A program made the position numbers and the translations under genes. Below are positions 6,563-39,621 of a stretch of DNA of 40,077 nucleotides, one piece after another. Numbering within the stretch: position 1 is the first letter of the stretch; the number at the start of each line of letters is the position of its first letter. Source of the DNA: a virus (taxonomy: Duplodnaviria > Caudoviricetes); IMG/VR virus record IMGVR_UViG_3300016667_000323, positions 1-40,077 of that record; one strand, written 5' to 3'. Under the pieces are notes generated by a model that saw only the letters and a program-made list of their open reading frames with translations, was not told where the DNA came from and did no database searches.

Positions 6563-6973
6563 ATGCAAACCTTCCTGCCACACCCCTCGTTCACCCGCTC
6601 CGTGCGGGACCTCGACAACCGCCGCCTCGGCAAGCAGCGGGTCGAGACGTACCAGATCCTTCGCGCCCTGAACGGCCAGTCGAAGGGCTGGACCAACCAC
6701 CCCGCAACCAAGATGTGGCGCGGCTACGAGCGCGCACTCAGCAATTACCTTCGTGCCTCGATCATCGAGTGGATCAGCCGCGGCTTCAAGAACACCATGG
6801 CCATCCCTGACTTCGACAGCAAGGCACCGCTTCCCCCGTGGTTCGGGGACGATCGGCTTCACTCATCGCACCGCGCAAACCTCAAGCGCAAGGACGGTGC
6901 GCATTACGCTCACTACGAAGAGGACCCCAGCACCCCGTACTTCTGGCCCACCGAGGAGGCCGCACATGTATGA
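6563..6973 (+). CDS. Pyrimidine-dimer DNA glycosylase / endonuclease V-like protein (MSMEG_6728-like)
   Basis: MQTFLP...LDNRRLGKQRVE...NHPATKMWRG...PPWFGD...HSSHRANL.RKD family signature. Confidence 0.8.
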   Translation: MQTFLPHPSFTRSVRDLDNRRLGKQRVETYQILRALNGQSKGWTNHPATKMWRGYERALSNYLRASIIEWISRGFKNTMAIPDFDSKAPLPPWFGDDRLHSSHRANLKRKDGAHYAHYEEDPSTPYFWPTEEAAHV

Positions 6974-7205
6974 CCCGAACGAGATCAACATCCTTCGTGA
7001 CAAGATGTCCGCTATGGAATCTGAGCGTCTGCGTCTTGACGCTGACATTGCTGAGCTGCGGGCAAGACTTGTCGAGGAGCAGACCGCCAACATCGCACTC
7101 AGGTCGCGGATCGACATCACCGAATGCCATCTCCGTGATGCCCGCCAAACCAACGCGCGACTCCACTCGAAAGTTCAGGAGTATGAAGCCCGTGAGTTCA
7201 TGTGA
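6966..7205 (+). CDS. Hypothetical coiled-coil protein (79 aa, MYDPNEIN...)
   Basis: ATG preceded by GAGGAGG; overlaps the upstream stop; heptad-like sequence. Confidence 0.6.
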   Translation: MYDPNEINILRDKMSAMESERLRLDADIAELRARLVEEQTANIALRSRIDITECHLRDARQTNARLHSKVQEYEAREFM

Positions 7206-7218
7206 AGAGGACAGGAAC

Positions 7219-7626
7219 ATGAAGCTGTTGAACACCCTGCTGACCCGCCCGATGAAGAGGAACCTGAAGATGTGGATGGCGTGGCCGTACCAGCTCTTCG
7301 ACGCGATCCGCAAGGTCGAGACCGGCGACATGACGGACGCGGACGCGGCTCTGGCTGTTGGCGACAACGGCCGCAGCTTCGGACCGTACCAGATCCAGCG
7401 TGCGTACTGGCAGGACGCGATCGAGCACCAGCCCGAAATCGGCGGTCAGTTCCTCGACTGCCGGAACCCCCGCTATGCTGAGCGGATCATGCTGGCGTAC
7501 TGGGACCGCTACGCCCCGGACGACCACTACGAGACGCTCGCCCGCATCCACAACGGTGGCCCCAAGGGCCACGAGAATCCCAACACCCTTGAGTACTGGA
7601 AGCGCGTGTCTTCTAACCTCAAGTGA
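7219..7626 (+). CDS. Lysozyme-fold endolysin, i-type/destabilase-like
   Basis: AIRKVETG (catalytic Glu), GPYQIQRAYWQDA, ARIHNGGPKG; AGGA before ATG 7219. Confidence 0.75.
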   Translation: MKLLNTLLTRPMKRNLKMWMAWPYQLFDAIRKVETGDMTDADAALAVGDNGRSFGPYQIQRAYWQDAIEHQPEIGGQFLDCRNPRYAERIMLAYWDRYAPDDHYETLARIHNGGPKGHENPNTLEYWKRVSSNLK

Positions 7627-9400: not shown

Positions 9401-9781
9401 ATGCCAACCGCATCAGAGCTAGCCTACATCGCGGGATTGTTCGACGGCGAAGGTTGTGTTCGCCACACGGGGAAGTCGGAACACGTCTTCATCACGAGCT
9501 GCTACCCCCACCACCTTCTGTGGATTCAGAAGCTGGGGCGCTGCGGAACGATCAGGACGATCAAGGACAATCGACCGGGGCACCGCTGTGCCTACCGATT
9601 GGAATTGTACGGTAAAAACGCCGTCTCTTTCATTGAAGAAATTAGGCCATTCCTGAGGGAGAAGGCCTACCAAGCCGATATACTGCTCAGCATCAGAGGG
9701 CTACCCGCAAGGTCCTCGGCCCGGAAGATGGCGATCGAGGAACTCAAGAAAGCAAAGAGAATCAACTATGGACCCGCATGA
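9401..9781 (+). CDS. Free-standing single-motif LAGLIDADG homing endonuclease-like protein
   Basis: LAYIAGLFDGEGCV motif and FIEEIRPFLREKAYQA C-terminal pattern; more AT-rich than its neighbours. Confidence 0.8.
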   Translation: MPTASELAYIAGLFDGEGCVRHTGKSEHVFITSCYPHHLLWIQKLGRCGTIRTIKDNRPGHRCAYRLELYGKNAVSFIEEIRPFLREKAYQADILLSIRGLPARSSARKMAIEELKKAKRINYGPA

Positions 9782-10276: not shown

Positions 10277-11040
10277 GCAAGAAGAAGAAGCCAACCCACG
10301 CCCTGATCGACGCGGACATCCTGCTGTACCAGACCAGCACCGCGGTAGAGAAGGCCATCGACTGGGGCAACGACTGGTGGACCCTGCACTCGGACGCCCG
10401 AGAGGCCCAGCAGATGTTCGACGTTGCCCTTGGCGATATCCTAGACAAGGTGAAGACGAAGAAGTTCACGCTGTGCTTCAGCAGCCCCAACAACTTCCGC
10501 ATCCGGGTGCTGGCCGACTACAAGGCGAACCGCCTGACCACCCGCAAGCCGCTGGCCTACGCCGCTGTCCGTAAGTACGCGGAGGAGACCTACACCACCG
10601 CGGCCCTGCCTACGCTGGAAGCTGACGACGTGATAGGGATTATGGGCACCATGCCCAGCCCGAAGCATGACTACATCATGGTGTCGGAGGACAAGGACTT
10701 CCGCACCATCCCCGGCCGGCACTTCAACCCCCGCACCGGGAACTTCCTCGAGGTGTCCGTGCAGGCGGCTGACCGCCACCACCTGTACCAGACCCTGATC
10801 GGGGATACGACCGATAACTACAAGGGCTGCCCCGGCATCGGGCCAGTCAAGGCCGAGGCCCTGCTCGATGCAGACTGCTCGTGGCCAGCTGTTGTCTCCG
10901 CCTTCGTGAAAGCTGGACTGACCGAGGAAGACGCGCTCGTTCAGGCCAGAGTCGCCCGCATCCTGCGTCACGGCGAGTATGATCTTCAGACCGCCAAGGT
11001 ACACCTATGGACACCCCAGACAGCTACTTCGCAAGCGTGA
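10273..11040 (+). CDS. T7 gp6-like 5'-3' exonuclease
   Basis: LIDADILLY, YKANR, LEADDVIGI, SEDKDF, GDTTDNYKGCPGIG. Confidence 0.93.
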   Translation: MSKKKKPTHALIDADILLYQTSTAVEKAIDWGNDWWTLHSDAREAQQMFDVALGDILDKVKTKKFTLCFSSPNNFRIRVLADYKANRLTTRKPLAYAAVRKYAEETYTTAALPTLEADDVIGIMGTMPSPKHDYIMVSEDKDFRTIPGRHFNPRTGNFLEVSVQAADRHHLYQTLIGDTTDNYKGCPGIGPVKAEALLDADCSWPAVVSAFVKAGLTEEDALVQARVARILRHGEYDLQTAKVHLWTPQTATSQA

Positions 11041-11402
11041 AGGATTCCGGCAAGCGGGAAGCCTTCGATACCGGCAGCCAGCGCGACACCCGAGAGGGCA
11101 AGGGCAGGTTCGACCTGCTCAGCCCGTTCGTCCTTGAGCGGGATTCCGTTCACTTGGAGAACGGTGCCCGTAAGTATGGAGACCGAAACTGGGAGAAGGG
11201 CCAGCCCCTGTCCCGATACCTCGACTCCGCCATGCGTCATCTCAACAAGTACCTGATGGGCCATCTGGACGAGGACCATCTGGCGGCTGCCCGCTGGAAC
11301 ATCGCGGCCATCATGCACACCGAGCTGATGATCAAGATGGGCCTGCTGCCAGAGGAACTGGATGACCTGCCGAAGTGGGTTCAGCATTACCCGGCCTTTT
11401 GA
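11007..11402 (+). CDS. dATP/dGTP diphosphohydrolase-like (DUF5664-type) protein
   Basis: GKGRFDLL...GARKYGDRNWEKG...DSAMRHL...EDHLAAARWN signature. Confidence 0.8.
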   Translation: MDTPDSYFASVKDSGKREAFDTGSQRDTREGKGRFDLLSPFVLERDSVHLENGARKYGDRNWEKGQPLSRYLDSAMRHLNKYLMGHLDEDHLAAARWNIAAIMHTELMIKMGLLPEELDDLPKWVQHYPAF

Positions 11403-19840: not shown

Positions 19841-20473
19841 ATGTGCATCTTTGCAGCAGCTCCCGCAGTGGGCTTCACTGCGGCCAACGCTTTGGCAGCG
19901 AACCTTGCCGTCGGCGCAACCGCCGCCGCGTCGCTCGCCGCACCCATCTACTCCTACGTCGCTCAGTCACAGGCCGCCTCGGCGCAGGCCGAGTACCAGC
20001 AGCAGATGTACGCGGCGAACCAGAAGATCGCTGAGCAGTCCCTGCTGTCTCAGTACTCGGACATCTCCCGCCGGCAGCAGCAGGAGCAGGAGAAGGCCTC
20101 GCAGGAGATGCGGGCGATCTCGAGTCAAGCCGAGATGGCGCGCTCCACCGCGTCGGTCTCGGCCATCGAGTCGGGAGTTGCTGGCATCTCGGTGGACTCC
20201 CTGATCAACGACTACTACCGCAAGGAGGCGCAGTACATCGAGAGCACGCAGCGTCAGCTCCGGGGCACGATGTTCCAGCTCGAGCGCTCCAAGGAGGGCC
20301 TGAGGGCGAACTACCAAGGTCAGGTGCTCAGCATGCTGCCCCAGCCCGTGACCCAGCCCAGCCTGCTGGCTACCGGCCTGCAGCTCGGTAGCAACGCCGC
20401 CGGCCTGTACAGCAGCCTGTACCTCAACAACTACGACCGCCGCATCCTCCGCACCTCCCTCGGCATCGGATAA
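19841..20473 (+). CDS. Internal virion protein B (gp14-like ejection protein)
   Basis: MC-start with hydrophobic N-terminus, Q/A-rich coil, ESGVAGISVD motif. Confidence 0.8.
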   Translation: MCIFAAAPAVGFTAANALAANLAVGATAAASLAAPIYSYVAQSQAASAQAEYQQQMYAANQKIAEQSLLSQYSDISRRQQQEQEKASQEMRAISSQAEMARSTASVSAIESGVAGISVDSLINDYYRKEAQYIESTQRQLRGTMFQLERSKEGLRANYQGQVLSMLPQPVTQPSLLATGLQLGSNAAGLYSSLYLNNYDRRILRTSLGIG

Positions 20474-20476
20474 TCC

Positions 20477-23197
20477 ATGGCAAAGCAGCGCATCAATCCT
20501 GATTTCGACCCGACCCGGATCGTCCAGCCGACCGCCAACCCGGTCGATACGTACTACCGCAACAATCTGGTGGCCCCCGATGTCGGTAGGCAGCTCCAAA
20601 TCGCCAAGGCGCTGCAGGACCTGAATCCGCAGCTCCAGCGCCTCACTAGCGACGTGGCCTCGTTCTCGATCTCCAAGCAGATCGAGGCCGGCGCGCTCGA
20701 GGCTCAGGCAGCTCCGACTCAGGAGATCCTGATGAGCAAGGCGGCCCAGTACATCGAGAAGGCCGGCGGCCTTGCCCCGTGGCGCTACCAGTCGTTCCTG
20801 AAGGCCACCGGAGACCGACTGACACGGGACAACTACCAGTCCAAGCTGTACGAGAACATCGAGGACCTGACCGATCCGACCAACCCGGACGGCACCCTAC
20901 GCGGCGCGGACTACATGACCACCCGCATGCAGGAGCTGTTCAAGGAGGCGGGCATCCCCGAGGACAGCTTCTACATCACGCAGGGCGCGCTCGAGGCGAA
21001 GGCGAAGGCCGACGAGACCTTCATGAACCGCGCCGTGCTAATCCACGCTGAGAAGGTCAAGACGAAGGGCGAGAACGATCTCAAGGACAAGATCTTCTTC
21101 GCCCTGAAGACCACCCCGGTGGAGAACCTTGACGAGCTGTTTGCGTTCGATGGCCCGGTCCGCGGCGCGCTCGACACCTTCCACGCTCAGGGCTTCGGCT
21201 CGGGCGACGAGCAGCTCGTGTCTGCCATCAAGGACTGGGCCGACGTTCTTGAGTCCTCGCACGACTTCGACGGCGCTAGGTCCGTCATCAAGTTCCTGAT
21301 GGAGAACAACGTCGGCAACCGCAAGATCGGTGACCGCTACACCCCGATGCTTCAGAAGAAGCTGGACGACCTTGACGAAACCCAGCAGAAGTACGCCGTC
21401 TACCAGACGCAGCTCCGCCAGACGGAGCAGAACGCCGCCATGAGCGACGCCATGGACGTTCTCATGGGCCGCTACCAGCAGATGCAGGCGGATCGCCAGA
21501 AGAAGGGCCTCGGCAACTTCATCAACATGTCGGTGGACCAGCGCATGCAGTGGGCCGACGAGACTCTCTCGAAGCTCAACTACAGCGCGGACGCCAAGCG
21601 CGACGCCAAGTCCCGCATCGTGGAGGCCCTGCGCGTCTTCGAGAACGAGCAGAACCAGCCCAGCCGCCCCAACCCCGCGGTCACCGCCGCGCTTCTGCAG
21701 GAGGCTTACACGGCCGATCGCAAGGAGCTGCTCCCCAAACTGATCGCTCAGGTAAGTCAGGGCAACATGGGCATCGGTGAGATGCGGTCGATCCTCGATG
21801 TCAACGCCGAGGCCGCCTCCATTCAGGGCTCCTCGAGCGCCATCGGCCAGATCCTTGGAAACATGGGCTTTAACGACGGCACGTGGACCGGGTATGCCAA
21901 GGAGACTGTCAGCCCGGACTACCGGGTGATGTTCGAGCAGCTCGGCGCTGACGCTCAGGCCACGATCTACCAGCGCATCCTTGCCGAGACCACCTCGCAG
22001 GAGTTCAAGCAGAAGTACTCCATGGACCCCGTTGGCAAGCAGCAGGCTGTCCTCGAGATCGCCCGCCGAGTTGCCGGTGAGGAGCGCAAGCGTCTCATCG
22101 AGGACAACAAGGACAAGATCGAGGGGGCCGACATGACCCAATCGTTCAACACGGTGTGGTCGCAGGAGTACGACACCGCCGCGGAGCGCCTTGCGGCCAA
22201 CTACGTGGCCACCCTCGAGATGAACCCGAAGAAGGACGACAGCTACGGCATCGTCCGCAACATCATGTTCGACTACAAGGCTCGCATGAAGGCCGTGTGG
22301 GAGGACCTGAGTGCTCCCCGAGCGGGCCAGCGCCCCCTGTCGATGACCGAGAAGCGGGAGCGCCTGTCCAGCGAGGTTCAGCGCATCGAGCGCGAGCTGC
22401 TGTCGGACCTGAAGAACCCCAAGACCGTCAAGGCGCTCACCCCGGAGCAGGTCAACATGATGTCCCGCCCGGCCCCATCGGAGATCCCGCAGGGCATGCC
22501 GGGTGTCACTGCTCAGCCGGGAGAGGCAGGAAGCGCCGTCACCAGCAGGAATTGGGCCCTGTTTGGCGGGAACCTCTCGCTCACCCCGCAGGAGTCCTCG
22601 GTGGCCACCCTCGCCAAGGACATCCGTTCGCGTTCTGGAACGATCAGCGCCACCTCGTCGGCCTCCGACAAGGCCGCCTTCGACCAGTCCAAGGCCGATT
22701 TGCAGGCAACCGCCGCCGATGCCATCAAGGCGTTCAACACGGTCTCGCTGCGCGAGTACAACATCCGTCACGGCAGGGGCTGGGTGGGTGGTGGCGGCGA
22801 CCGTCCCGCCATCCAGATCCGTCCGGACGGTCTGTACGTGGACCAGTACAACCCGCTCAGCTTTGGCCCGACGAATCCTCCCGTACTGGATCGCCGGATC
22901 ACTGAACAATACTGGGTGTACAAGTCCATTCTCGGGTATACTCCCGATGAGCTGGCTGCTGGTAAGACCGTGGAAGGTCTGACCATCGAAGCGCCTATGC
23001 TGGACCCCAACTCCTTCCTGTTCTTCACGTCTCCGACCCAGTTCCAGCAGGCCGTGGACGAGTACCTGCAGAACAAGGGCACCAAGGGCTTCATCGCTGA
23101 GCAGGTCCTGCCGAAGCTGACCCCCTACGGGACGACTTTCGCTGAGTTTAAGGACTCGCAGATGCGGCTCCTTCAGGTCCGCAAGCCCCTCAAGTAA
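20477..23197 (+). CDS. Internal virion protein C (gp15-like ejection protein)
   Basis: 906-aa helical protein between gp14-like and gp16-like genes; N-terminal PTANPVDTY. Confidence 0.7.
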   Translation: MAKQRINPDFDPTRIVQPTANPVDTYYRNNLVAPDVGRQLQIAKALQDLNPQLQRLTSDVASFSISKQIEAGALEAQAAPTQEILMSKAAQYIEKAGGLAPWRYQSFLKATGDRLTRDNYQSKLYENIEDLTDPTNPDGTLRGADYMTTRMQELFKEAGIPEDSFYITQGALEAKAKADETFMNRAVLIHAEKVKTKGENDLKDKIFFALKTTPVENLDELFAFDGPVRGALDTFHAQGFGSGDEQLVSAIKDWADVLESSHDFDGARSVIKFLMENNVGNRKIGDRYTPMLQKKLDDLDETQQKYAVYQTQLRQTEQNAAMSDAMDVLMGRYQQMQADRQKKGLGNFINMSVDQRMQWADETLSKLNYSADAKRDAKSRIVEALRVFENEQNQPSRPNPAVTAALLQEAYTADRKELLPKLIAQVSQGNMGIGEMRSILDVNAEAASIQGSSSAIGQILGNMGFNDGTWTGYAKETVSPDYRVMFEQLGADAQATIYQRILAETTSQEFKQKYSMDPVGKQQAVLEIARRVAGEERKRLIEDNKDKIEGADMTQSFNTVWSQEYDTAAERLAANYVATLEMNPKKDDSYGIVRNIMFDYKARMKAVWEDLSAPRAGQRPLSMTEKRERLSSEVQRIERELLSDLKNPKTVKALTPEQVNMMSRPAPSEIPQGMPGVTAQPGEAGSAVTSRNWALFGGNLSLTPQESSVATLAKDIRSRSGTISATSSASDKAAFDQSKADLQATAADAIKAFNTVSLREYNIRHGRGWVGGGGDRPAIQIRPDGLYVDQYNPLSFGPTNPPVLDRRITEQYWVYKSILGYTPDELAAGKTVEGLTIEAPMLDPNSFLFFTSPTQFQQAVDEYLQNKGTKGFIAEQVLPKLTPYGTTFAEFKDSQMRLLQVRKPLK

Positions 23198-23215: not shown

Positions 23216-26200
23216 ATGAGCGCATTCGCCAACTTTGCTGACGAGTTCTACAACCTGAGCGCGACCAACTCGGTGCGTCATGCTGCTGCCGGTATGGGTG
23301 GCGACACCCCGGAGAAGAAGCAGCAGGACTGGGGCGTCTTCGACTACGCCACGGACATGGCTCTGGGTGTCCCCCGTGGAGTCCTGAGCGCTGCCTCGGA
23401 CATGGTGAACCTCGCCGGTCTCCCGTTCGGCTATGAGGTCGAGAACCGCTTCGGCCTGATGGCTGACTCGGAGTCGGTTGCCGGCGGCATCACCGAGGGC
23501 ATCGCCAACTTCATGACCGGCATGATCCCGGGCGGTCTGGTGGCCGGCGGCCTCTCCAAGGTGGCCAAGGGCTACAAGATGGTGAAGGCCATTGACACCG
23601 CTGCGGAGATCGCCAAGGCCAGCGGCAACCTGACCAAGTACAACGCCATCCGCGGCGCTCAGGCCCTCGTCAAGGGCTCCGTGGCTGGCGCTGTGGCTGA
23701 CTTCGTGGCCTTCGACGGGCACGAGGAGCGCCTGTCGAACCTCCTGCGGGACCACGCAGGGCTGAGCGACCCCCTGACCGCGTACCTCGCGGCGGACAAG
23801 AACGACAGCGAGATCGCCGGCCGATTCAAGAACGCCCTCGAGGGTCTCGCCATTGGCGGCCTGACGGAGGGCCTGTTCAACGCCTTCCGCATGTACAAGG
23901 CCGGCTTCACGGTCAAGAGCGCCGGCGGCTCCGCCGATGCGGTCGATGCCGCGATGAACGCCGAGGCGCACCAGATCCGCCTCGAGCAGCGAGACCAGAT
24001 CAAGACCTCGTTCAACCTGACGGACGAGGAGGCCGATGTCACGAACATGCTGATCGATCGGATGGGCCTCGATCGATCCAAGCTGAAGGTCGTCTCTGGT
24101 CAGGAAGCCCAGCAGGCCTACGACATGGCCTCGGGTGCCCTCGAGCAGCGCAAGAAGTTCGACCCGGTGGCTGCCCTGCCTCAGGACGCGCAGGAGCTGA
24201 AGAACCTCCTCGACCCGGAGGAGTGGGCCAGCATCAAGTCTCAGGGCACGCTTGACAGTCTGGTGGGCCTGTACAAGCGCTTCGACGTGGAGCTGATGCC
24301 GCTGCTCCGGGCCGCCGCAGAGGCCGGCTCGCCGGTCCACGGTGGCTACGAGGAAGGCGCGGCGATCATGCGCAAGCTCGTGGGCGACACCCGGGCAGAG
24401 CTGTTCGCCAACTTCTCGGCAGCCACGTCGCCCCAGAACAAGGTCGCCGCCCACACCCGCCTTGGTGTCGGCATCACGGCCGATGTGATCGATCGCATCC
24501 GTGCGGGCAACATCGCTGAGATGGGCCTCGATGAGATGCGGACGATCGTGGATTCGGTCGGCACCCGCCTTAAGGCGAAGGGCATGGTCGAGGACTATGC
24601 CAAGCGTTCGCTGGGGATCGCTAACGATCTCCTTGGCCGTCTCCGCACCCTGCAGGAGGCCAACCCCAGCGCCTCCATGGACGAGCTGCTGAACACCGTC
24701 GATGCCACGGGCCTGTACAAGAACATGGCCGGCACCGGCATGGAGAAGGGCGCTGGCAAGGTCCCGGGCTTTGCTGAGGGCAGCGCCGGCCGCCTGAACA
24801 AGGTCGTGCTCGACACCTACATGGCCCGTCTGGTCCCCGACGACCTGTTCCCGAACCTCGCGGCCTCGGAGCTGATGGACGCCAAGAAGGAGTGGCTGGG
24901 CAAGGCCGCGAACTACACCGCCTTCTCGGCAACGGTCCGCAAGCTGTCCACTGAGCTTGGTATCATGCCGGGCCACGCCCAAGAGCGTATCTGGGGCGCG
25001 GTCTACGTTATCGGGGCCCTGAAAAAGGAGGGCATGAACCCCGAAGCGGTCTACAAGAACCTGTCCAAGGAGGATATGCTTGCCTCTTGGGACCTGCTCT
25101 CCATTCTCCAGAAGCCTGAGGTAACCAATGAACTCCGACGACTTGGCGCTGATGAAGGATCTCTTGCGGATCTCGCGGGGCTCGCCGCAGATGTCCGACA
25201 GCGCGTCCGCCCCAACCTCAACACTCCCATCCGAGTCTCAGATCCTGCAGCGCTTGAGGAGCTTGCCCGACGGGTTCCTAAGTTCAGTGGCAGCAGCGGA
25301 ACAGAAGTCACCGCAGCCCGAGCAGCCCGCGGCGCAACCCTCCTCAACCAAGAAGCGGCGGTAAGCCGCGCGGACCTGTGGAAGGTCCCCGAGCAGGCTT
25401 TCTCGTCTGCCGATACATCCATCAATGCGTCGAAGCTGCCGACCGGGTTCACCAAGGTTGAGCAGGCCGGCGGCTGGAAGCCCGGAACGGTCAACGTGGA
25501 CATCGGCGGCGGTCGATTCGACAACGCCGTCGAGAAGCTGAGCACCCTCGGGGTTGACAGCAAGGTCTTCGACCCGTTCAACCGCAGCGCGGAGCACAAC
25601 AACGCTGTGTCCGCGGCGGTCGCTGGCGGCAAGGCCGACACCGCCACCATCTTCAACGTCCTGAACGTCATCAAGGAGCCTGAGAACCGTCTCCGCGTTC
25701 TCCAGCAGGCCGAGGACGCGCTGAAGCCCGGCGGTAAGCTGTACATTCAGGTCTACGAGGGTGATGCCTCGGGCGTCGCTCGCGCAACCGGCGGCAACAA
25801 GTTTCAGCTCAACCAGAAGCTCAAGGACTACCTCCCCGAGGTCCAGAAGGTGTTCCCCGAGGCCCGCGTCGAGAAGGGCCTGATCGTTGCCGAGAAGAGC
25901 ACCAGCGTTCTCCGTCAGGGCGAGGGCTCGGTCCGCGGCTTCGCGGCGTTTGCGGAAGATGGCAAGGCCGTCATCGGCGGACTGAAGAACCCGGATGTCG
26001 GTACCGCGGTCCACGAGATCGCGCACGTCGGCCGCCGCCAGCTCTTCGATCGCGCCGTCCCGCAGGAGGCCCGCATGGGCATCTCCGATGCGGACATCGG
26101 TGTCATGGAGAAGTGGGCTGGGGTCACGGACGGTACGTGGACCCGCCCTGCCGAGGAGAAGTTCGCCAACGGCTTCATGAAGTACCTGCGCGACGGCGAG

Positions 26201-29200
26201 GCCCCCGAAGGTCTCCTCGGGATCTTCTCGAAGCTGGCCGACTGGATGCGCAACATCTACCGCGACATCAAGGGCAGCGAGCTTGACATCCAGATCAGCC
26301 CCGAGGTCAAGGAGGTGTTCGACAAGCTGGTGAGCCGCGGCCCGGGCTACGAGAGGGCCGTCTCGACCACCGCAACCACCGCGGCCGTCGGTGCCCGTGG
26401 CGCTGGCCGTGGCCCCACGCTCCTCGAGCAGGCTGCCACCAGCCCCGACCTTGGGAAGCCCGGTGGCGTCCCCAACGCCCCGATCAACTTGACCAACTTC
26501 AGCACCGCGGACGATGTGAACCGGGCGGTCGATGACTTCATCAAGCAGGAGCCTCTGGTCTCCACGCTGGCTGACGTTCCGCCCGAGGCGCTGTCGCAGG
26601 TCGCCAAGGAGGCTCAGGACAACTTCGATGCCATCTCCCGAATCAGCGGTGAGAAGGACCCCCTCGACTTCCAGAGGTACCTGAGCACCGATGGCTTCTC
26701 GGCCTATGACCTGTCGCAGGCCAGCCGCCAGCTTCAGGGTCTCCGCAAGTTCGCCGCTTCGGTGTCGTCCCGCATGCTCGAGTTGTCCACCAAGGGCAGC
26801 GCAGCGTCGCAGGAGGACATCTACGAGTTCCTCGCGGCCCGTACCGCGTCGAACGCTGCGATCCAGTCGATCAAGGAGCGTCAGCGCGAGGTGGCCCGCA
26901 TGCTGGGTGCCATGCGCATCAACCCGACTCCTGAGAAGATCTCGATGCTTCCGCCCCTCCCCAAGGCCGGGGAGGTGAAGCCCACCGTCGCCGCGGCTGC
27001 CACTAGCCCCGCTGCGGTACCCAGCCCGGGTGCGCTGCCCACGAGCGCCGCTGCCGTCGCTCCCTCCCCGGCCGCGATCAATCCACTCATGGATGAGGCT
27101 ATGCGTGCTCGTGTCATCCAGCAGGAGATCGAGCGGGCCGGCGGCGAGGATGCCGTCAAGGCCCAGATGGCCAAGTTCGCCGCGGCTGCTGCCTCGGGTG
27201 GTGAAGAGGCCGTCATGAAGCTGGCCCGCGGCTACCGCTCTGGCAACGCGCTGGTCGAGTACTGGATGAACAGCATCCTGTCGGGCCCGGTGACCCACGC
27301 GGTCAACATCTCGGCCAACCTGCTGACCGCCCTGTACCTGCCTATGGAGCGTGCCCTTGGGGCCACCCTGAGGGGAGACATGAAGGGGGCCAACGCGGCC
27401 CTGCGGCAGTACGTGCACATGGGCCAGCAGTTCGGTGACGCAATGCGGCTGGCCTACACGGCCCTGAAGATGGACGCGAACATCCTCGAGTCCGTCGGTA
27501 CGGCCGAGAAGGACGTGATGGGCCGGGCGATCTCGGCCCGCGGCTTCGGTATGGCTGACGACAGCACTGGCGGCAAGGCCGTCAATTGGCTGGGCAACCT
27601 GCTGAACCTGCCCACGCGCTTCCTGACTGCCGAAGACGAGTTCTTCAAGCAGCTCAACTACCGCTCCAGCTTCCTCACGGAGCTGCACATGGAGGGCATG
27701 AACCGCTTCAAGGGCAACCCGCAGGCTGCCGCCAAGTGGGCTCAGGAGACCTTTGACCGGGCCCTTCAGGACGGTCAGGCCTATGCCGAGAGTACGGTCC
27801 TGAAGCGGGCCTACGCCGAGGCCGACAAGGCCATCTCGGCCGGCACGATCAAGGCCCCGGAGAAGATCGACTTCGTGGCCAAGTACATGGCCGACTCGAA
27901 GAACTGGGACCCGGAGCTGGGCGTCCTGTCGGATCGGGCCATGTCGCAGGCGCGCTACGCGACCTTCAGCACCCCGCTGACGAACGACCCGAACGCCATG
28001 CTCACGACCCGTCTGGCGTCGCGCATTCAGGCCGCCGCGAACGAGCACCCGCTCATCCGCTTCGCCCTGCCGTTCATCCGCACCCCAACGAACCTGCTGA
28101 ACTTCACGCTGGACCGAACCTTCGTCGTGAACCTGCCGGCCTCGAGGCAGGCCTTCGGTGAGATGTCGGCCGCGCTGATGTCGAAGAACCCGCACGTCAA
28201 GAACGACGCCATGGGTCGCCTTGCGTTCTCCGCGGCGGCTGCCTTCACGGTGGGCACCGCGGCCTTCAGCGGCGTGATCACCGGAGGTGGCCCGAAGAAC
28301 AAGAACGAGCGTGACATGAAGATGCAGACGGGCTGGCAGCCCTACTCGATCCGCATCGGTGACAAGTACGTCAGCTACCGCCGCGAGGACCCCTTCGCGT
28401 CGATCATCGGCCTCGTGGCCGACGTGGTGGAGGGTTACCAGTACGCCGACGAGAAGGGCGCTGTCGGTCTCGACAAGGCACTGAACACGATCGTTCTGGC
28501 GATCTCTCGCAACATCACGAACAAGACGTATCTGACGGGCATCACCAACATCTCTAACGCGATCTCCAACCCGGAGCAGTTCGGCCAGACGCTGGTGAAC
28601 CAGTACGTCAGCTCGCTGGTGCCGTTCAGCTCCGCGCTGAGCCAGTCGATCTCTACCGTCGCTGACGATCCGGTGATGCGTGACACTCGGACCATGCTGG
28701 ACGCCATCCGGGCGAAGATTCCGTTCCTTGCCGAGCAGGTTGCCCCCAAGCGCAACATCCTCGGTGAGGCGGTCACCCGCCCGAGCAGCGTCGGCCCCGA
28801 CATGTTCAGCCCGCTGACCTACACCGAGGTGAAGGACGACAAGATCCTGCAGGAGTTCAACCTGCTGGGCCACGGCTTCACCCCGCCCAAGGAGCAGCGT
28901 GGGGCGATCGACCTGACCACCTTCTCGACCCGCAGCGGGCAGCAGGCCTACGACCGTTGGCTCGAGCTGCACGGCACGGTGCGCGTCGGTGGCCGCACCC
29001 TCCGCGAGGCTCTGCTGCGTGAGATCAACTCCCGCGGCTACCAGCGTCTCAGCCCGGCCTCCACGGAGGACTACGACTCTCCACGCATTCGCCAGCTCAG
29101 GGAGGTCATCGCGACCTACCGAGAGGCTGCCTACAGGCAGCTCCTCAGGGAAGCCCCCGAGCTGGACCGCGCGTCTCGCCTCGATTTCGCCAACAAACAA

Positions 29201-29254
29201 GCCCTGCGGATGGGCCGCAGCGCACAAGAACTGTTCGATCTCGGAAACCGCTAA
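23216..29254 (+). CDS. Internal virion protein D (gp16-like), 2012-aa multidomain protein with embedded SAM-methyltransferase and HExxH domains
   Basis: Position before the fibre gene; gp16-like C-terminal motifs EYWMNSILSG, PFIRTPTN, GWQPYS; internal VDIGGGRFD...NVLNVI...LKPGG and HEIAH. Confidence 0.85.
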   Translation: MSAFANFADEFYNLSATNSVRHAAAGMGGDTPEKKQQDWGVFDYATDMALGVPRGVLSAASDMVNLAGLPFGYEVENRFGLMADSESVAGGITEGIANFMTGMIPGGLVAGGLSKVAKGYKMVKAIDTAAEIAKASGNLTKYNAIRGAQALVKGSVAGAVADFVAFDGHEERLSNLLRDHAGLSDPLTAYLAADKNDSEIAGRFKNALEGLAIGGLTEGLFNAFRMYKAGFTVKSAGGSADAVDAAMNAEAHQIRLEQRDQIKTSFNLTDEEADVTNMLIDRMGLDRSKLKVVSGQEAQQAYDMASGALEQRKKFDPVAALPQDAQELKNLLDPEEWASIKSQGTLDSLVGLYKRFDVELMPLLRAAAEAGSPVHGGYEEGAAIMRKLVGDTRAELFANFSAATSPQNKVAAHTRLGVGITADVIDRIRAGNIAEMGLDEMRTIVDSVGTRLKAKGMVEDYAKRSLGIANDLLGRLRTLQEANPSASMDELLNTVDATGLYKNMAGTGMEKGAGKVPGFAEGSAGRLNKVVLDTYMARLVPDDLFPNLAASELMDAKKEWLGKAANYTAFSATVRKLSTELGIMPGHAQERIWGAVYVIGALKKEGMNPEAVYKNLSKEDMLASWDLLSILQKPEVTNELRRLGADEGSLADLAGLAADVRQRVRPNLNTPIRVSDPAALEELARRVPKFSGSSGTEVTAARAARGATLLNQEAAVSRADLWKVPEQAFSSADTSINASKLPTGFTKVEQAGGWKPGTVNVDIGGGRFDNAVEKLSTLGVDSKVFDPFNRSAEHNNAVSAAVAGGKADTATIFNVLNVIKEPENRLRVLQQAEDALKPGGKLYIQVYEGDASGVARATGGNKFQLNQKLKDYLPEVQKVFPEARVEKGLIVAEKSTSVLRQGEGSVRGFAAFAEDGKAVIGGLKNPDVGTAVHEIAHVGRRQLFDRAVPQEARMGISDADIGVMEKWAGVTDGTWTRPAEEKFANGFMKYLRDGEAPEGLLGIFSKLADWMRNIYRDIKGSELDIQISPEVKEVFDKLVSRGPGYERAVSTTATTAAVGARGAGRGPTLLEQAATSPDLGKPGGVPNAPINLTNFSTADDVNRAVDDFIKQEPLVSTLADVPPEALSQVAKEAQDNFDAISRISGEKDPLDFQRYLSTDGFSAYDLSQASRQLQGLRKFAASVSSRMLELSTKGSAASQEDIYEFLAARTASNAAIQSIKERQREVARMLGAMRINPTPEKISMLPPLPKAGEVKPTVAAAATSPAAVPSPGALPTSAAAVAPSPAAINPLMDEAMRARVIQQEIERAGGEDAVKAQMAKFAAAAASGGEEAVMKLARGYRSGNALVEYWMNSILSGPVTHAVNISANLLTALYLPMERALGATLRGDMKGANAALRQYVHMGQQFGDAMRLAYTALKMDANILESVGTAEKDVMGRAISARGFGMADDSTGGKAVNWLGNLLNLPTRFLTAEDEFFKQLNYRSSFLTELHMEGMNRFKGNPQAAAKWAQETFDRALQDGQAYAESTVLKRAYAEADKAISAGTIKAPEKIDFVAKYMADSKNWDPELGVLSDRAMSQARYATFSTPLTNDPNAMLTTRLASRIQAAANEHPLIRFALPFIRTPTNLLNFTLDRTFVVNLPASRQAFGEMSAALMSKNPHVKNDAMGRLAFSAAAAFTVGTAAFSGVITGGGPKNKNERDMKMQTGWQPYSIRIGDKYVSYRREDPFASIIGLVADVVEGYQYADEKGAVGLDKALNTIVLAISRNITNKTYLTGITNISNAISNPEQFGQTLVNQYVSSLVPFSSALSQSISTVADDPVMRDTRTMLDAIRAKIPFLAEQVAPKRNILGEAVTRPSSVGPDMFSPLTYTEVKDDKILQEFNLLGHGFTPPKEQRGAIDLTTFSTRSGQQAYDRWLELHGTVRVGGRTLREALLREINSRGYQRLSPASTEDYDSPRIRQLREVIATYREAAYRQLLREAPELDRASRLDFANKQALRMGRSAQELFDLGNR

Positions 29255-36480: not shown

Positions 36481-36570
36481 TCATTCCCGACGACGTGGCG
36501 CGTAGAGCATGAAGCCCGCAGCGCATGCCGTGACGACGACGGCGACGACGAAGCGCAGCAGGTCGTTCAC
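36481..36570 (-). CDS. Small membrane protein, 29 aa (MNDLLRFVVAVVVTACAAGFMLYAPRRRE)
   Basis: Translated by hand; GGAGG RBS and GTGA overlap with the vWA stop; single TM and basic tail. Confidence 0.55.
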   Translation of the reverse strand: MNDLLRFVVAVVVTACAAGFMLYAPRRRE

Positions 36571-38396
36571 GCTGCACCTCCCTTCGCCAGCCGCGTGATG
36601 GCGCGGGCCAGCAGAGGCCCGGCGCTGCGAGTGTCGGGAATCGAGATGAACCGACGAGGGCCGAAGCAGGCCGCGCCGGTGTTCGCCATCTCGCCCTCGA
36701 TGCCGACGGCGAGGAACTCGATGCCGCGTGCTTCGGCGCTGCTCACCACGCCGCGAATGTGACGCGCAGCCTTCTCGCCTCTGTACCCGTGAGCGTTCGG
36801 CTCGCCGTCGGCCACGAGCAGCACGATGCGGCGATCGGCCCGCATGCGTGCAGCGCGATCGACCGCGTGGGCGATCGCGTAGCCGTCGGCATTGTCGCCG
36901 CCAGCGTGCAGGCCCGTGATGCTTTCGGGCGTGGCGCAGGTGTCATACGACACACGGCCGACGCGGCCGTACCCGTATCCGACGGAGTGCCCAGCCACCT
37001 CAACCTTGAACCGTCCGCCATTGCCGAACGCCTTCGCGAGCGCGAACGCCACACGCTTCGCGGCCTCGATGCGCGACGTGCCTTCCCGCGTGTGGCAGCC
37101 CATCGATCCGCTGCAATCCACGAGCACCTGCACGCCGACGGTGGTCGGCGCCTTCTCAGCGCGCACCTCGAACACGCGATCGTCGCCGAACGCTGCGAGG
37201 CGATCGAGCGCGCCTTCGTCAATGTCGCCGCGCTGCTGGCCACGCTCGAACACGGGCGGCGTGGTGCTCTCCCACACGATGCGTGATAGCGCAGCGATCA
37301 GGGGACGCGCCCCTTCTTCGAGGCTGCGCAGGCTGTACCTGTCGATGCGCGCCTTGTGTTCGTGCACGGGGTAGCGGCCGTCGGCCTCGTCACCTTCCGC
37401 CTTGACGTGGGCCGCGCCGATCTCAGGCGCTGCGGGCTGCGTGAGCGTGCTCGTGAGGTGCGCGCCGGGCTTGTGAGTGTCGCCCAGCATCTCAGCGGCC
37501 TCGCTGGCGGGAACCTGCTGAGGCTCGCCAGCACCGTCGCCCTCGCCCGCACCACCCTGAGGCTGCTCCGCGCCCTCAGGCTGCGCGGCCAGCATGGCGG
37601 CGACGGCAGCATCGGCGCGGGTCAGCATCTCGCCGTGCTTCCACAGCGTGCTCAGGTGCTCGCGCCCTGCTGCGGCCATCATCTCGATCTCCTGCGGTGC
37701 GCTCGCGCCTTCCGGCCACAGGCTCAGCGCCTGCGCGCTCAGCAGCGCGGACGCGCGCACGATCGCCGCCGCCTTCCCATCGTTCACGAACGAATGCAAC
37801 GCTTCGGGAACGCTCGCGCCCGCCTCGCTGGCCTTGAAGTAGCCCGCCCAGCCGGGCCATTCCGCCAGCACCTTCTCACGACCGCGAACGGTCGCGATCG
37901 ATGCCGCGAGGTGAGCGCCCGCGTATTCGGCGGCGAGTGTGTCGGCGCGGTGCGGCAGGTGAGAGGCCAGCCGGTAATCGATCACGCGGCGCTCGATCGT
38001 GGCGCGCTCTGCGGCCTTCAGGTACGTGGCCTTCGAGGCTTCCGTGAGCAGGCGGCCCGTGGTGAAGTCCACGGCATGCTCAGGGCTGCTGGCGCGTGCG
38101 AGGATGTCGCCGCCGCTCACGACGAGGCTGCCCTTCGTCACGTAGGTCGAGGCGCGCACCTCCTCGCCCGTCCACGAGGTGACGGTGGCGCTCGCCGCGC
38201 GCAGGGTGCGCTCGATGAACGCGGCGCGCTGCTGATCGCTGGCGGTCGTCGCGTCGATCGCGTCGATGCGCGCGTTGGTGAGCATGTCGCCCACCGACGC
38301 GCTGGGGCTGAACGATGCGCCGCCGACTGCGGTCGCGTAGGTGCTGGACTTGGCAAGCCACTTGGGGGTCATGTTGGGGTTCTCCATGTTGGGCAT
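36567..38396 (-). CDS. CobT-like von Willebrand A domain protein (MoxR partner)
   Basis: MIDAS VLVDCSGSM, VADGEP, GIEFLAVGI; GDIDEGALDRL...RVF pre-vWA motif; acidic linker. Confidence 0.88.
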   Translation of the reverse strand: MPNMENPNMTPKWLAKSSTYATAVGGASFSPSASVGDMLTNARIDAIDATTASDQQRAAFIERTLRAASATVTSWTGEEVRASTYVTKGSLVVSGGDILARASSPEHAVDFTTGRLLTEASKATYLKAAERATIERRVIDYRLASHLPHRADTLAAEYAGAHLAASIATVRGREKVLAEWPGWAGYFKASEAGASVPEALHSFVNDGKAAAIVRASALLSAQALSLWPEGASAPQEIEMMAAAGREHLSTLWKHGEMLTRADAAVAAMLAAQPEGAEQPQGGAGEGDGAGEPQQVPASEAAEMLGDTHKPGAHLTSTLTQPAAPEIGAAHVKAEGDEADGRYPVHEHKARIDRYSLRSLEEGARPLIAALSRIVWESTTPPVFERGQQRGDIDEGALDRLAAFGDDRVFEVRAEKAPTTVGVQVLVDCSGSMGCHTREGTSRIEAAKRVAFALAKAFGNGGRFKVEVAGHSVGYGYGRVGRVSYDTCATPESITGLHAGGDNADGYAIAHAVDRAARMRADRRIVLLVADGEPNAHGYRGEKAARHIRGVVSSAEARGIEFLAVGIEGEMANTGAACFGPRRFISIPDTRSAGPLLARAITRLAKGGAA

Positions 38397-38409
38397 TGTA
38401 GCGACTGCC

Positions 38410-39543
38410 TCAGGCTGTCAAGGGGCCGAACTTGCCCACCAGCAGCGCGGTGATGGTCGCGCGCTCAGACTCCGCGCCGCCCTCAGCGGGGAACAGATTC
38501 GCGATCGTGAACGCCAGCGACGACGGGCCGACGAGGTGATAGTCGGATGCCGCCGCCAGCAGTTGGCGCGTGCTCAGCGTGGTGCTGAAGGTACTCACGC
38601 CCGCCTGCGTGGTGCGGGTCTTGGTGGCGATCTCCACGAGGCGCTGGGCCACGCTCGCGTCGATGCCCGTGCGATCGACCAGCAGCGCGGCCTCGTCGGC
38701 GGCGGGCAGGTAGGTGAACTCCACCACGCGCGGGAAACGATCGCGCAGCGCGGCATCCATCGGCCCCGTGCCCGTGAACTGCGAACCCTCGTTCATGGTC
38801 GCGACGAACACGGTGCTGGGCGCGACGCGCACCACGCTGCCGCGCTCATCGACCAGCGTCGCACGACGGCGATCGAGCAGGGGCAGCAGCGCGTTGCCGA
38901 CGGTCAGGCTGGCGCGGTTCGCCTCATCGAGCACGACGACGCAACGGCCGCGCGTGATGGCGCGCACGAACTGCGAATCCTGCCACGCGATCGAGCCGCC
39001 GCGCACGGTCTTGGAGCCGAACCAATCGCGCGGCTCGCGCACGATCGAGCAGTCGATCACGAACGCATCGAAGCCAGCCATCGCGGCCAACTGAAGCGCC
39101 GCCTCAGTCTTGCCGCAGCCTGCGGGGCCGACGAGGCGCATCTGCTCGATCGCGCCGCATTGCGCGCTCTTGGCGATCCGTTCGAGGTAACCGCGCAGCG
39201 TGCTGCTCATGCGGAAGGTGGTGTCGAGCGCCGGGGTGACGAGCGCGTCGGTGTCGTGCGTGATAGTGGGCGCGGCCTCAGCGACAGGCGCGGGGGCCGG
39301 GGTCGTGGTGACGGCGCCCACGAAGCGGTACGCGCCGCGTCCGATCTCGCGCGCCTCGCCGCGCAGCACCTTCTCACGCACGGCGCGCCGCAGGTAGTTG
39401 TCGTCGGCGCCCAAGTCGGCCACGCCAGCGCCGCGCAGGCTGTCGCGCAGGCTGTCGAGGGTGACGGTCGAGGTGGTGGTGGTGGCGAGAGTGTCGAGCG
39501 CGTCAATGACGGCGACGAACGAAGAAGAGCGGGACTTCGGCAC
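38410..39543 (-). CDS. MoxR-family (CobS/CbbQ/NirQ/NorQ-like) AAA+ ATPase with a probable N-terminal winged HTH
   Basis: Walker A GPAGCGKT, Walker B VVVLDEANR, ATMN, DAALRDRF, STRQL; GTG start 39543 preceded by GGAG/GAGGAGG. Confidence 0.92.
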   Translation of the reverse strand: MPKSRSSSFVAVIDALDTLATTTTSTVTLDSLRDSLRGAGVADLGADDNYLRRAVREKVLRGEAREIGRGAYRFVGAVTTTPAPAPVAEAAPTITHDTDALVTPALDTTFRMSSTLRGYLERIAKSAQCGAIEQMRLVGPAGCGKTEAALQLAAMAGFDAFVIDCSIVREPRDWFGSKTVRGGSIAWQDSQFVRAITRGRCVVVLDEANRASLTVGNALLPLLDRRRATLVDERGSVVRVAPSTVFVATMNEGSQFTGTGPMDAALRDRFPRVVEFTYLPAADEAALLVDRTGIDASVAQRLVEIATKTRTTQAGVSTFSTTLSTRQLLAAASDYHLVGPSSLAFTIANLFPAEGGAESERATITALLVGKFGPLTA

Positions 39544-39621
39544 GGGTGAATCTCCGCACCTCCTCGCGTTCTCTCCGCCGCTCCGCATGGAGCAGTCGCG
39601 GCACGAGGTGGTGCAGCGTGC

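Follow-up and report, generated by a model that had tools for sequence, protein, structure and literature searches.

The T7 proteins gp14 to gp16 are ejected from the virion and form a DNA channel. Enzyme cargo in an injected polyvalent protein is a known design, and the methylases described there are DNA base methylases: in the accessible text of Iyer et al. 2017 (PMC5512222), large late-operon virion proteins combine enzyme cargo, an HExxH peptidase-like segment and a carrier, and DNA methylases are common cargo, marked by an NPP(Y/F) motif, an SF2 helicase behind and LPD36 before. The T4 proteins IPI–IPIII and Alt, as far as the available text of two sources goes (PMC9026906, PMC5694885), are packaged, ejected and non-essential, and serve counter-defence or take-over. 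A Vibrio phage PAPS-reductase/Dam fusion that counters Dnd, as set out in the available portion of Piel et al. (10.1101/2021.05.05.442762), shows that phages are under selection to counter that system. Here, we describe a class I S-adenosylmethionine (SAM) methyltransferase domain carried by a 2012-amino-acid (aa) virion protein of a T7-like phage with an integrase; the window is the whole of IMG/VR virus record IMGVR_UViG_3300016667_000323, 40,077 bases. The domain belongs to a different methyltransferase branch from the cargo methylases above, and is probably an injected counter-defence enzyme. Phosphorothioate (PT) immunity is the favoured target, though this, and with it the complete chain of steps set out below, is a tentative and rather doubtful proposal by association.

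The domain and its parts lie within the gene for the 2012-aa protein as follows:

25394..25897, + strand: class I SAM methyltransferase domain, aa ~727–894 (Pfam, AlphaFold model, fold searches, family alignment)
25493..25522, + strand: motif I glycine loop NVDIGGGRFD, aa 760–769, with D762 and G764–G766 (family alignment)
25568..25600, + strand: motif II, D786-P787, and the family-specific N789-R790...H794-N795 (alignment, model)
25655..25672, + strand: NVLNVI after strand 4, its N817 common to the KVP40 and TIGR04096 branches
25754..25813, + strand: YEG and a hairpin insert with T858, Q864 and N866 (alignment, model)

An earlier note on this DNA had placed a class I SAM-dependent methyltransferase with motifs I and II at aa ~730–895 of the ejection protein; the analysis bears out fold, motifs, limits and placement, with the limits now at aa ~727–894. 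Pfam Methyltransf_23 (cut-off 27 bits) reached 29.1 bits with the whole protein and 34.1 bits with the domain by itself. An AlphaFold model built from 83 sequences (predicted local distance difference test, pLDDT, 88.7; predicted template modelling score, pTM, 0.85) has a Rossmann-like sheet in class I strand order with a reversed last hairpin and a hairpin inserted after strand 5, and a helix replaces the usual third strand. Foldseek matched the model to 382 PDB entries at E ≤ 0.001, class I methyltransferases, and VIA fold matches reached Z 14.4. The motifs quoted in the note are all in frame within open reading frame (ORF) 23216–29254 (+): TSIN at aa 734–737 (25415–25426), FDPFNR at aa 785–790 (25568–25585), ADTATIFNVLNVI at aa 807–819 (25634–25672) and ALKPGGKLYIQVYEG at aa 835–849 (25718–25762). 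An artefact or wrong frame was ruled out by Pfam, the family alignment and the model.

Conservation points the same way. Residues invariant across 121 aligned rows are GGG, D786, N789, R790, N795, N814-V-L, I819, Q864 and F880, all of which the window protein has, and D762 and Y847 are each kept in 120 rows. Invariant polar residues line the pocket, and the YEG/hairpin insert is predicted from the model to form a substrate-side lid. The domain is very likely catalytically active.

The family is tightly conserved and appears to occur almost only in phages. A profile search of 1.84 billion representatives returned at least 2,086 clusters at 50% identity (E ≤ 1e-10), and the Atlas clusters among those listed were 88–100% viral. 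A search limited to proteins of 94–300 aa gave 229, the 120 best listed at 43–62% identity, and one limited to 1106–3521 aa gave 167. Only two direct matches came from 50,697 annotated phage records, one of which led to a divergent 215-aa Vibrio phage gene. The methyltransferase clade is larger than the profile used captures: divergent subfamilies with DFGAG or DYGAG followed by NV[LI]NV occur in other ejection proteins (P0463, P0469, P0471, P0486, P0453, P0459 and P0495; loci L124, L134, L137, L138 and L145).

That the substrate cannot be read from the sequence, as the earlier note had said, still holds. PDB sequence searches with the domain found nothing significant (best E 0.57; profile best E 0.03), and models of uncharacterised viral proteins matched it far better (template modelling score, TM, 0.89–0.92) than the PDB folds, which were led by small-molecule enzymes and Trm9 without any standout (Z from 14.4 to 11). 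The top VIA matches, heterocyclic-toxin methyltransferase 7bgg (Z 14.4, root-mean-square deviation 3.0 over 153 residues) and toxoflavin N1-methyltransferase (Z 13.1), would suit an injected enzyme that methylates a small immune molecule, such as a nucleotide- or ADP-ribose-derived signal or an antiphage metabolite, or that drains SAM for type I restriction, BREX or type III CRISPR. So would the pocket of invariant polar residues, the near-neutral charge (net +1 in the window domain) and the InPase, 2H and other nucleotide enzymes found on the same carriers. However, Z scores of 11–14 are common to many unrelated methyltransferases and single out no substrate, a handful of copies per virion could presumably drain little SAM, and this explanation leaves the TIGR04096 tie and the partner domain described below unaccounted for; we consider it unlikely.

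The same searches bear on methylation of host tRNA or rRNA, or of a host protein such as RNA polymerase, by the injected domain, either to take over the cell or to protect translation against anticodon nucleases. Trm9 was the top Foldseek match (E 5.9e-7, TM 0.60), with a Z of 12.6–12.9 tied with many others, METTL6, RsmC and Bud23 matched at Z 11.9–12.8, weak Pfam matches to rRNA_methylase (PF06962) and Bmt2 occurred in 49 and 4 of 83 members, respectively, and Alt-like ADP-ribosyltransferases are co-packaged. Yet the Pfam hits are weak (best E 1.9e-4 for PF06962 and 4.7e-3 for Bmt2) and fall on the generic Rossmann core, and the architectures seen include no fusion of the family to an RNA-binding domain, so that such a target seems distinctly unlikely.

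For NVLNVI, the earlier note was right that it is not the classical DPPY/NPPY, but it is not best taken as a degenerate NPPY either, since it aligns with YVINVI/FVLNVI of TIGR04096 and YVLNVV of KVP40. It occupies the position at which small-molecule and Trm9-type enzymes have their post-strand-4 helix, so that the activity could escape a check by DNA methylome alone. Across the family, NV[LI]N[VT] is present in 366 of 386 domains, and (D/N/S)PP(Y/F/W) after strand 4 in none of the 386.

This last result bears directly on whether the injected domain shields incoming phage DNA from restriction in cis, in the manner suggested for DarB, by methylating its bases through a non-NPPY chemistry. DNA methylases are common cargo of such proteins (PMC5512222, accessible text), a C5-cytosine methylase domain (PF00145) occurs in 2 of 119 carrier orthologues, one family member is fused to ArdA, and there is a weak PADLOC Mad2 match (E 1.2e-5). 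Against these stand the 0/386 count, the lack of any Pfam match to an SF2 helicase, LPD36 or target-recognition domain in the 2012-aa protein, the absence of DNA methylases from the 25 listed of the 36 Pfam families matched by 83 members, and stand-alone forms of 180 aa that are too small for usual sequence-specific recognition. Base methylation of this kind is thus an improbable function. Membership of the DarB/Dam/Dcm group was ruled out by the 0/386 NPPY-type motifs, the missing helicase and the Pfam results. The 50 best fold matches listed per search held no DNA methylase and no SAMTOR/Bmt2, which is not an exclusion.

The assignment of the domain to an ejection protein, also made in the earlier note, is supported by gene order and by PHROG 6651. 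The window encodes RNA polymerase, primase-helicase, DNA polymerase, portal, capsid, tube, nozzle and gp13- and gp14-like genes, then a 906-aa gp15-position gene, the 2012-aa gene, a tail fibre and terminase, and the features of the ejection module are:

23216..29254, + strand: carrier, a 2012-aa internal virion protein of the ejection-type polyvalent class in the gp16 slot (gene order, PHROG 6651, 0 Cys)
19841..23197, + strand: ejection-module genes upstream of the carrier, gp14-like (19841–20473) and gp15-position (20477–23197)
27233..29215, + strand: conserved carrier core, aa ~1340–2000 (599 homologues; PHROG 6651)
25928..26350, + strand: zincin-like, MPTase-like segment with HEIAH, aa 933–937 (motif seen in the sequence)
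24368..25375, + strand: second, independent cargo, DUF7178-like, aa ~385–720 (Atlas feature score 0.91 to DUF7178 clusters)

The carrier follows the gp13-, gp14- and gp15-position genes and precedes the tail fibre, being the last and largest gene of the gp14-15-16 block; it matches PHROG 6651, 'internal virion protein', at E 8.5e-58, and the gp14-like product matches T7_gp14 at E 1.6e-25. The gp15-position protein had no family match and is assigned from position only, and the whole 2012-aa protein had no PDB sequence match, solved gp16 included, at E ≤ 0.5. The HEIAH segment, in which a later glutamate is also visible, is common to many orthologues and has no Pfam match. The carrier is a late-operon protein that combines several unrelated enzyme-like domains in a set that differs between relatives, the hallmark of a polyvalent virion protein. 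It resembles the proteins in the accessible text of Iyer et al. 2017 (PMC5512222) in its late-operon position, its enzyme cargo, HExxH peptidase-like segment and carrier, and in relatives fused to ART-PolyVal, LPD38, LPD3 and InPase; it differs in that the window domain lacks NPP(Y/F), helicase and LPD36 and is of another methyltransferase branch.

Cysteine content is consistent with delivery through a virion. The carrier has no cysteine in 2012 aa, and 109 of the 119 orthologues examined (the best of 599 carrier-core homologues, as in all orthologue counts here) are likewise Cys-free. The methyltransferase domain itself is Cys-free in 122 of 142 carriers longer than 1100 aa; the corresponding counts, all uncorrected for relatedness, are 30 of 119 for mid-sized and 56 of 125 for short proteins. 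Long carriers also bear ART-PolyVal, LPD38, LPD3, InPase, lysozyme or ArdA domains. In one protein, P0268, the methyltransferase is fused to an ArdA antirestriction domain (E 5.7e-32).

Stand-alone members suggest a second route. They often begin MKxFxxFLxE (24 of 113 short-leader proteins under the strict pattern), which resembles the leaders MKTYQEFIAE of T4 IPII/IPIII and MKTFKEF of IPI, as read in the T4 record; the first 10 residues of IPIII are enough for head targeting, according to the available part of PMC9026906. The likeness to the T4 internal proteins lies in this leader, similar to their capsid targeting sequence; there is no sequence relation to the mature proteins, and, in the text available (PMC9026906, PMC5694885), neither they nor Alt include a methyltransferase. 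In 9 of 12 such loci the leader also occurs on unrelated neighbours, among them an Alt-like ADP-ribosyltransferase; two of four leader-type records searched encode gp23 together with the gp21 protease (the other two are 42–44% complete), and one member (L037) sits between head-morphogenesis and head-protease genes. In two loci (L008:8014-14683 and L034:5838-15187), clusters of unrelated T4-like genes have a common capsid-targeting-like leader, and these clusters provide a ready list of candidate injected proteins, mostly unannotated. The family recurs in at least two unrelated packaging routes, in giant ejection/polyvalent proteins and as stand-alone genes with T4 capsid-targeting-like leaders.

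A role in the producing cell, during assembly or packaging, or as a non-catalytic SAM or nucleotide binder with incidental ejection, would fit a late-operon gene, whose product therefore meets progeny DNA and SAM before packaging, and some stand-alone members have no recognisable leader. However, the capsid-targeting-like leaders and the loss of cysteine in long carriers indicate selection for delivery, and invariant polar residues beyond the SAM motifs suggest catalysis, making such a role very unlikely. It is in our view highly probable that the protein is packaged and ejected and that the domain arrives in the cytoplasm, perhaps freed by the adjoining HExxH peptidase.

Within the carrier, the methyltransferase is swappable cargo. 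A full copy is present in 4 of 119 orthologues (11 with a broader profile, the extra ones being divergent subfamilies), and the closest of these orthologues, at 72% core identity, is without it; others carry ART-PolyVal, C5 methylase, ParB, DUF7178 or DUF3293 domains. In a quick tree of 72 domains, carrier-linked copies fell in several separate branches, in line with repeated insertion, though deep support was weak and 35 of 69 inner branches were open. The DUF7178-like region, which has no Pfam match and for which a locus search found no relative, is present in 13 orthologues, none with the methyltransferase; a fixed partnership of the two was rejected, as these 13 have it alone. Its AATSPQ and VLDTYMAR motifs presumably resemble those of helix-hairpin-helix DNA glycosylases.

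The closest named relative of the phage domain is TIGR04096, the DNA phosphorothioation-associated putative methyltransferase of NCBIfam, which was the top NCBIfam match for five of six domain sequences tested. Profile alignment with hhalign of the family to the TIGR04096 domain (nine plasmid copies) gave 97.4% probability, E 9.8e-12, over 131 columns, and a TIGR04096-domain profile from which phage-family sequences were left out scored the real protein at 13.5 bits, whereas neither the reversed sequence nor any of 300 shuffles exceeded 1.4. Both have DxGxG, DP, (I/L)NV(I/V), the hairpin-insert threonine, loss of the region after motif II and, in some phage proteins, the partner domain. TIGR04096 itself is bacterial, about 650–870 aa, with two partner-domain copies, and lies beside dnd/ssp genes, while the phage family has GGG for GCG, N814 for Y/F, an extra HN helix and usually no partner. 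A divergent member, KVP40.0066 (NP_899314.1, PHROG 14016) of Vibrio Schizotequatrovirus (profile probability 98.4%), matches both groups. At 215 aa and with a capsid-targeting-like leader, it is found in 49 Vibrio phage records; unlike the window domain it is stand-alone, annotated as hypothetical, and has YVLNVV for NVLNVI. Residues common to the phage, KVP40 and TIGR04096 groups are D762, G764, G766, D786, N817-V818 and D808 (the last in 7 of 9 TIGR04096 rows).

The partner, the second domain of TIGR04096 (about 165 aa, no Pfam name), has a pattern GK...YxH...P...IxHxK...G..W common to TIGR04096 and phage proteins. Viral copies include:

L071:9203-9760: partner-domain copy
L057:10957-11442: partner-domain copy
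L062:6416-6964: partner-domain copy
L082:8774-9346: partner-domain copy

The partner directly follows the methyltransferase in P0138 and L062-type proteins, is encoded by nearby genes in L057, L071 and L080, and lies two genes away in a 485-kb phage. A clade methyltransferase accompanied it in 7 of 8 viral loci with the bacterial-type motif (from 15 pattern hits, 7 of them without the domain) and in 18 of 29 of the phage type, or 21 with a broader profile partly trained on them. Its model is confident (pLDDT 92.3) and had no clear match in fold searches (Foldseek best E 0.097; VIA best Z 4.0), and it therefore gives no functional clue.

In bacteria, this relative keeps company with PT genes. 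A motif scan of 4 of the 64 parts of the genome collection found at least 120 loci, of which 80 had flanks and 79 of these the partner domain. Among the 79, a methyltransferase was present in 74 and a Dnd or Ssp gene in 40 (26 of 41 among full 20-kb loci), with DndC in 21 and SspB in 12; DndD-like, DndC-like and cysteine desulfurase proteins are among the most frequent neighbour clusters. For comparison, 4.3% of genomes have dndCD and 3.0% have sspBCD, by the figures in the accessible text of PMC12914056. Since Dnd and Ssp have in common their PT chemistry, with its nucleophilic backbone sulfur, and not a protein set, an enzyme directed at PT is favoured. Two of 123 viral loci have ssp genes, both with full TIGR04096; these viral contigs (L109 and L119) bear a whole ssp-type gene set with it.

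Because its closest bacterial relative usually lies beside PT defence genes, the domain is predicted to blunt host defence on entry. As part of the gp16-slot virion protein, the methyltransferase would be delivered into the host with the DNA, reach the cytoplasm, perhaps on release by the neighbouring HExxH peptidase, and draw on the host's SAM within minutes of entry to knock out a defence, the favoured candidate being one built on PT DNA. It may methylate the PT sulfur or a PT-derived nucleotide, and on chemical grounds S-methylation would mask or labilise PT links. The masked mark would be one needed by PT-sensing effectors on host DNA, or read by PT-dependent nucleases on incoming phage DNA. 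In its most specific form, a virion-delivered PT S-methyltransferase that erases the mark for Dnd, Ssp and PT-reading nucleases, or makes the host chromosome labile at PT sites, the proposal is quite unlikely to be correct.

Several points weigh against the PT reading. Kinship with TIGR04096 is distant (about 20% identity, a long tree branch), the scores of 13.3–14.8 bits for the window domain and 27.1 for the best homologue tested fall far below the cut-off of 150, and the phage-invariant S731, N789, H794, N795 and N814 differ or are absent in TIGR04096. The PT count stands without a matched control of random defence-island genes, and a few PT hits are a lone PAPS reductase. Neither the window nor any of 80 phage-family loci contains a PT gene; the window also has no partner domain, and among family members just 6 of 386 carrier proteins and 4 of these 80 loci have one. 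Because the searches for the partner domain started from methyltransferase-linked copies and their results include near-duplicates, the coupling is inflated. The domain is compact and lacks a target-recognition domain, and the family's median net charge is +2, which makes a weak case for a DNA enzyme. No virion proteomics for any family member, the KVP40 group included, was found in the literature searched. That literature also reported no activity for the phage family or TIGR04096, so that the target rests on association.

The anti-Dnd gene of Piel et al. is comparable in belonging to a phage, including a methylase domain and acting against Dnd, but its domain is Dam-type, joined to a PAPS reductase, of a different family and not described as virion-borne in the portion available; identity was ruled out by this comparison (10.1101/2021.05.05.442762). 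No description of the phage family was found in the open-access literature, although the supplements of PMC5512222 and subscription papers may mention the domain, and the accessible parts of PMC10853773, PMC12839542, PMC12914056, PMC9927239 and PMC7824862 hold no account of it. The literature searched likewise held no paper on TIGR04096 function or on an ejection-protein methyltransferase.

Elsewhere in the window, the replication block includes a DenV-like pyrimidine dimer DNA glycosylase between helicase and polymerase (6563–6973; Pfam E 8.9e-25) and an ORF with a destabilase (i-type lysozyme) match (6838–7626; Pfam E 3.5e-8). A LAGLIDADG-like ORF immediately 3' of the 571-aa DNA polymerase gene (9401–9781) is possibly a homing element splitting the polymerase. 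A gene at 11007–11402 encodes a dATP/dGTP diphosphohydrolase N-terminal domain (Pfam E 2.5e-20), and a CobS/CobT-like pair of MoxR-type AAA ATPase and VWA genes lies on the opposite strand (36567–39588, −), around which the window's end is GC-richer (about 0.69).

A large, virus-biased family on at least two packaging routes indicates an activity that is widespread, unstudied and required at entry. Direct tests are feasible, as the 180-aa stand-alone forms are expressible and a divergent member occurs in the cultured Vibrio phages KVP40 and nt-1. The unnamed partner domain deserves its own study, and, having no clear fold match, opens with the TIGR04096 link a route to a neglected component of PT immunity. 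If the domain did prove to be a PT S-methyltransferase, both its DNA chemistry and its class of injected counter-defence would be new, and TIGR04096 would gain a function.

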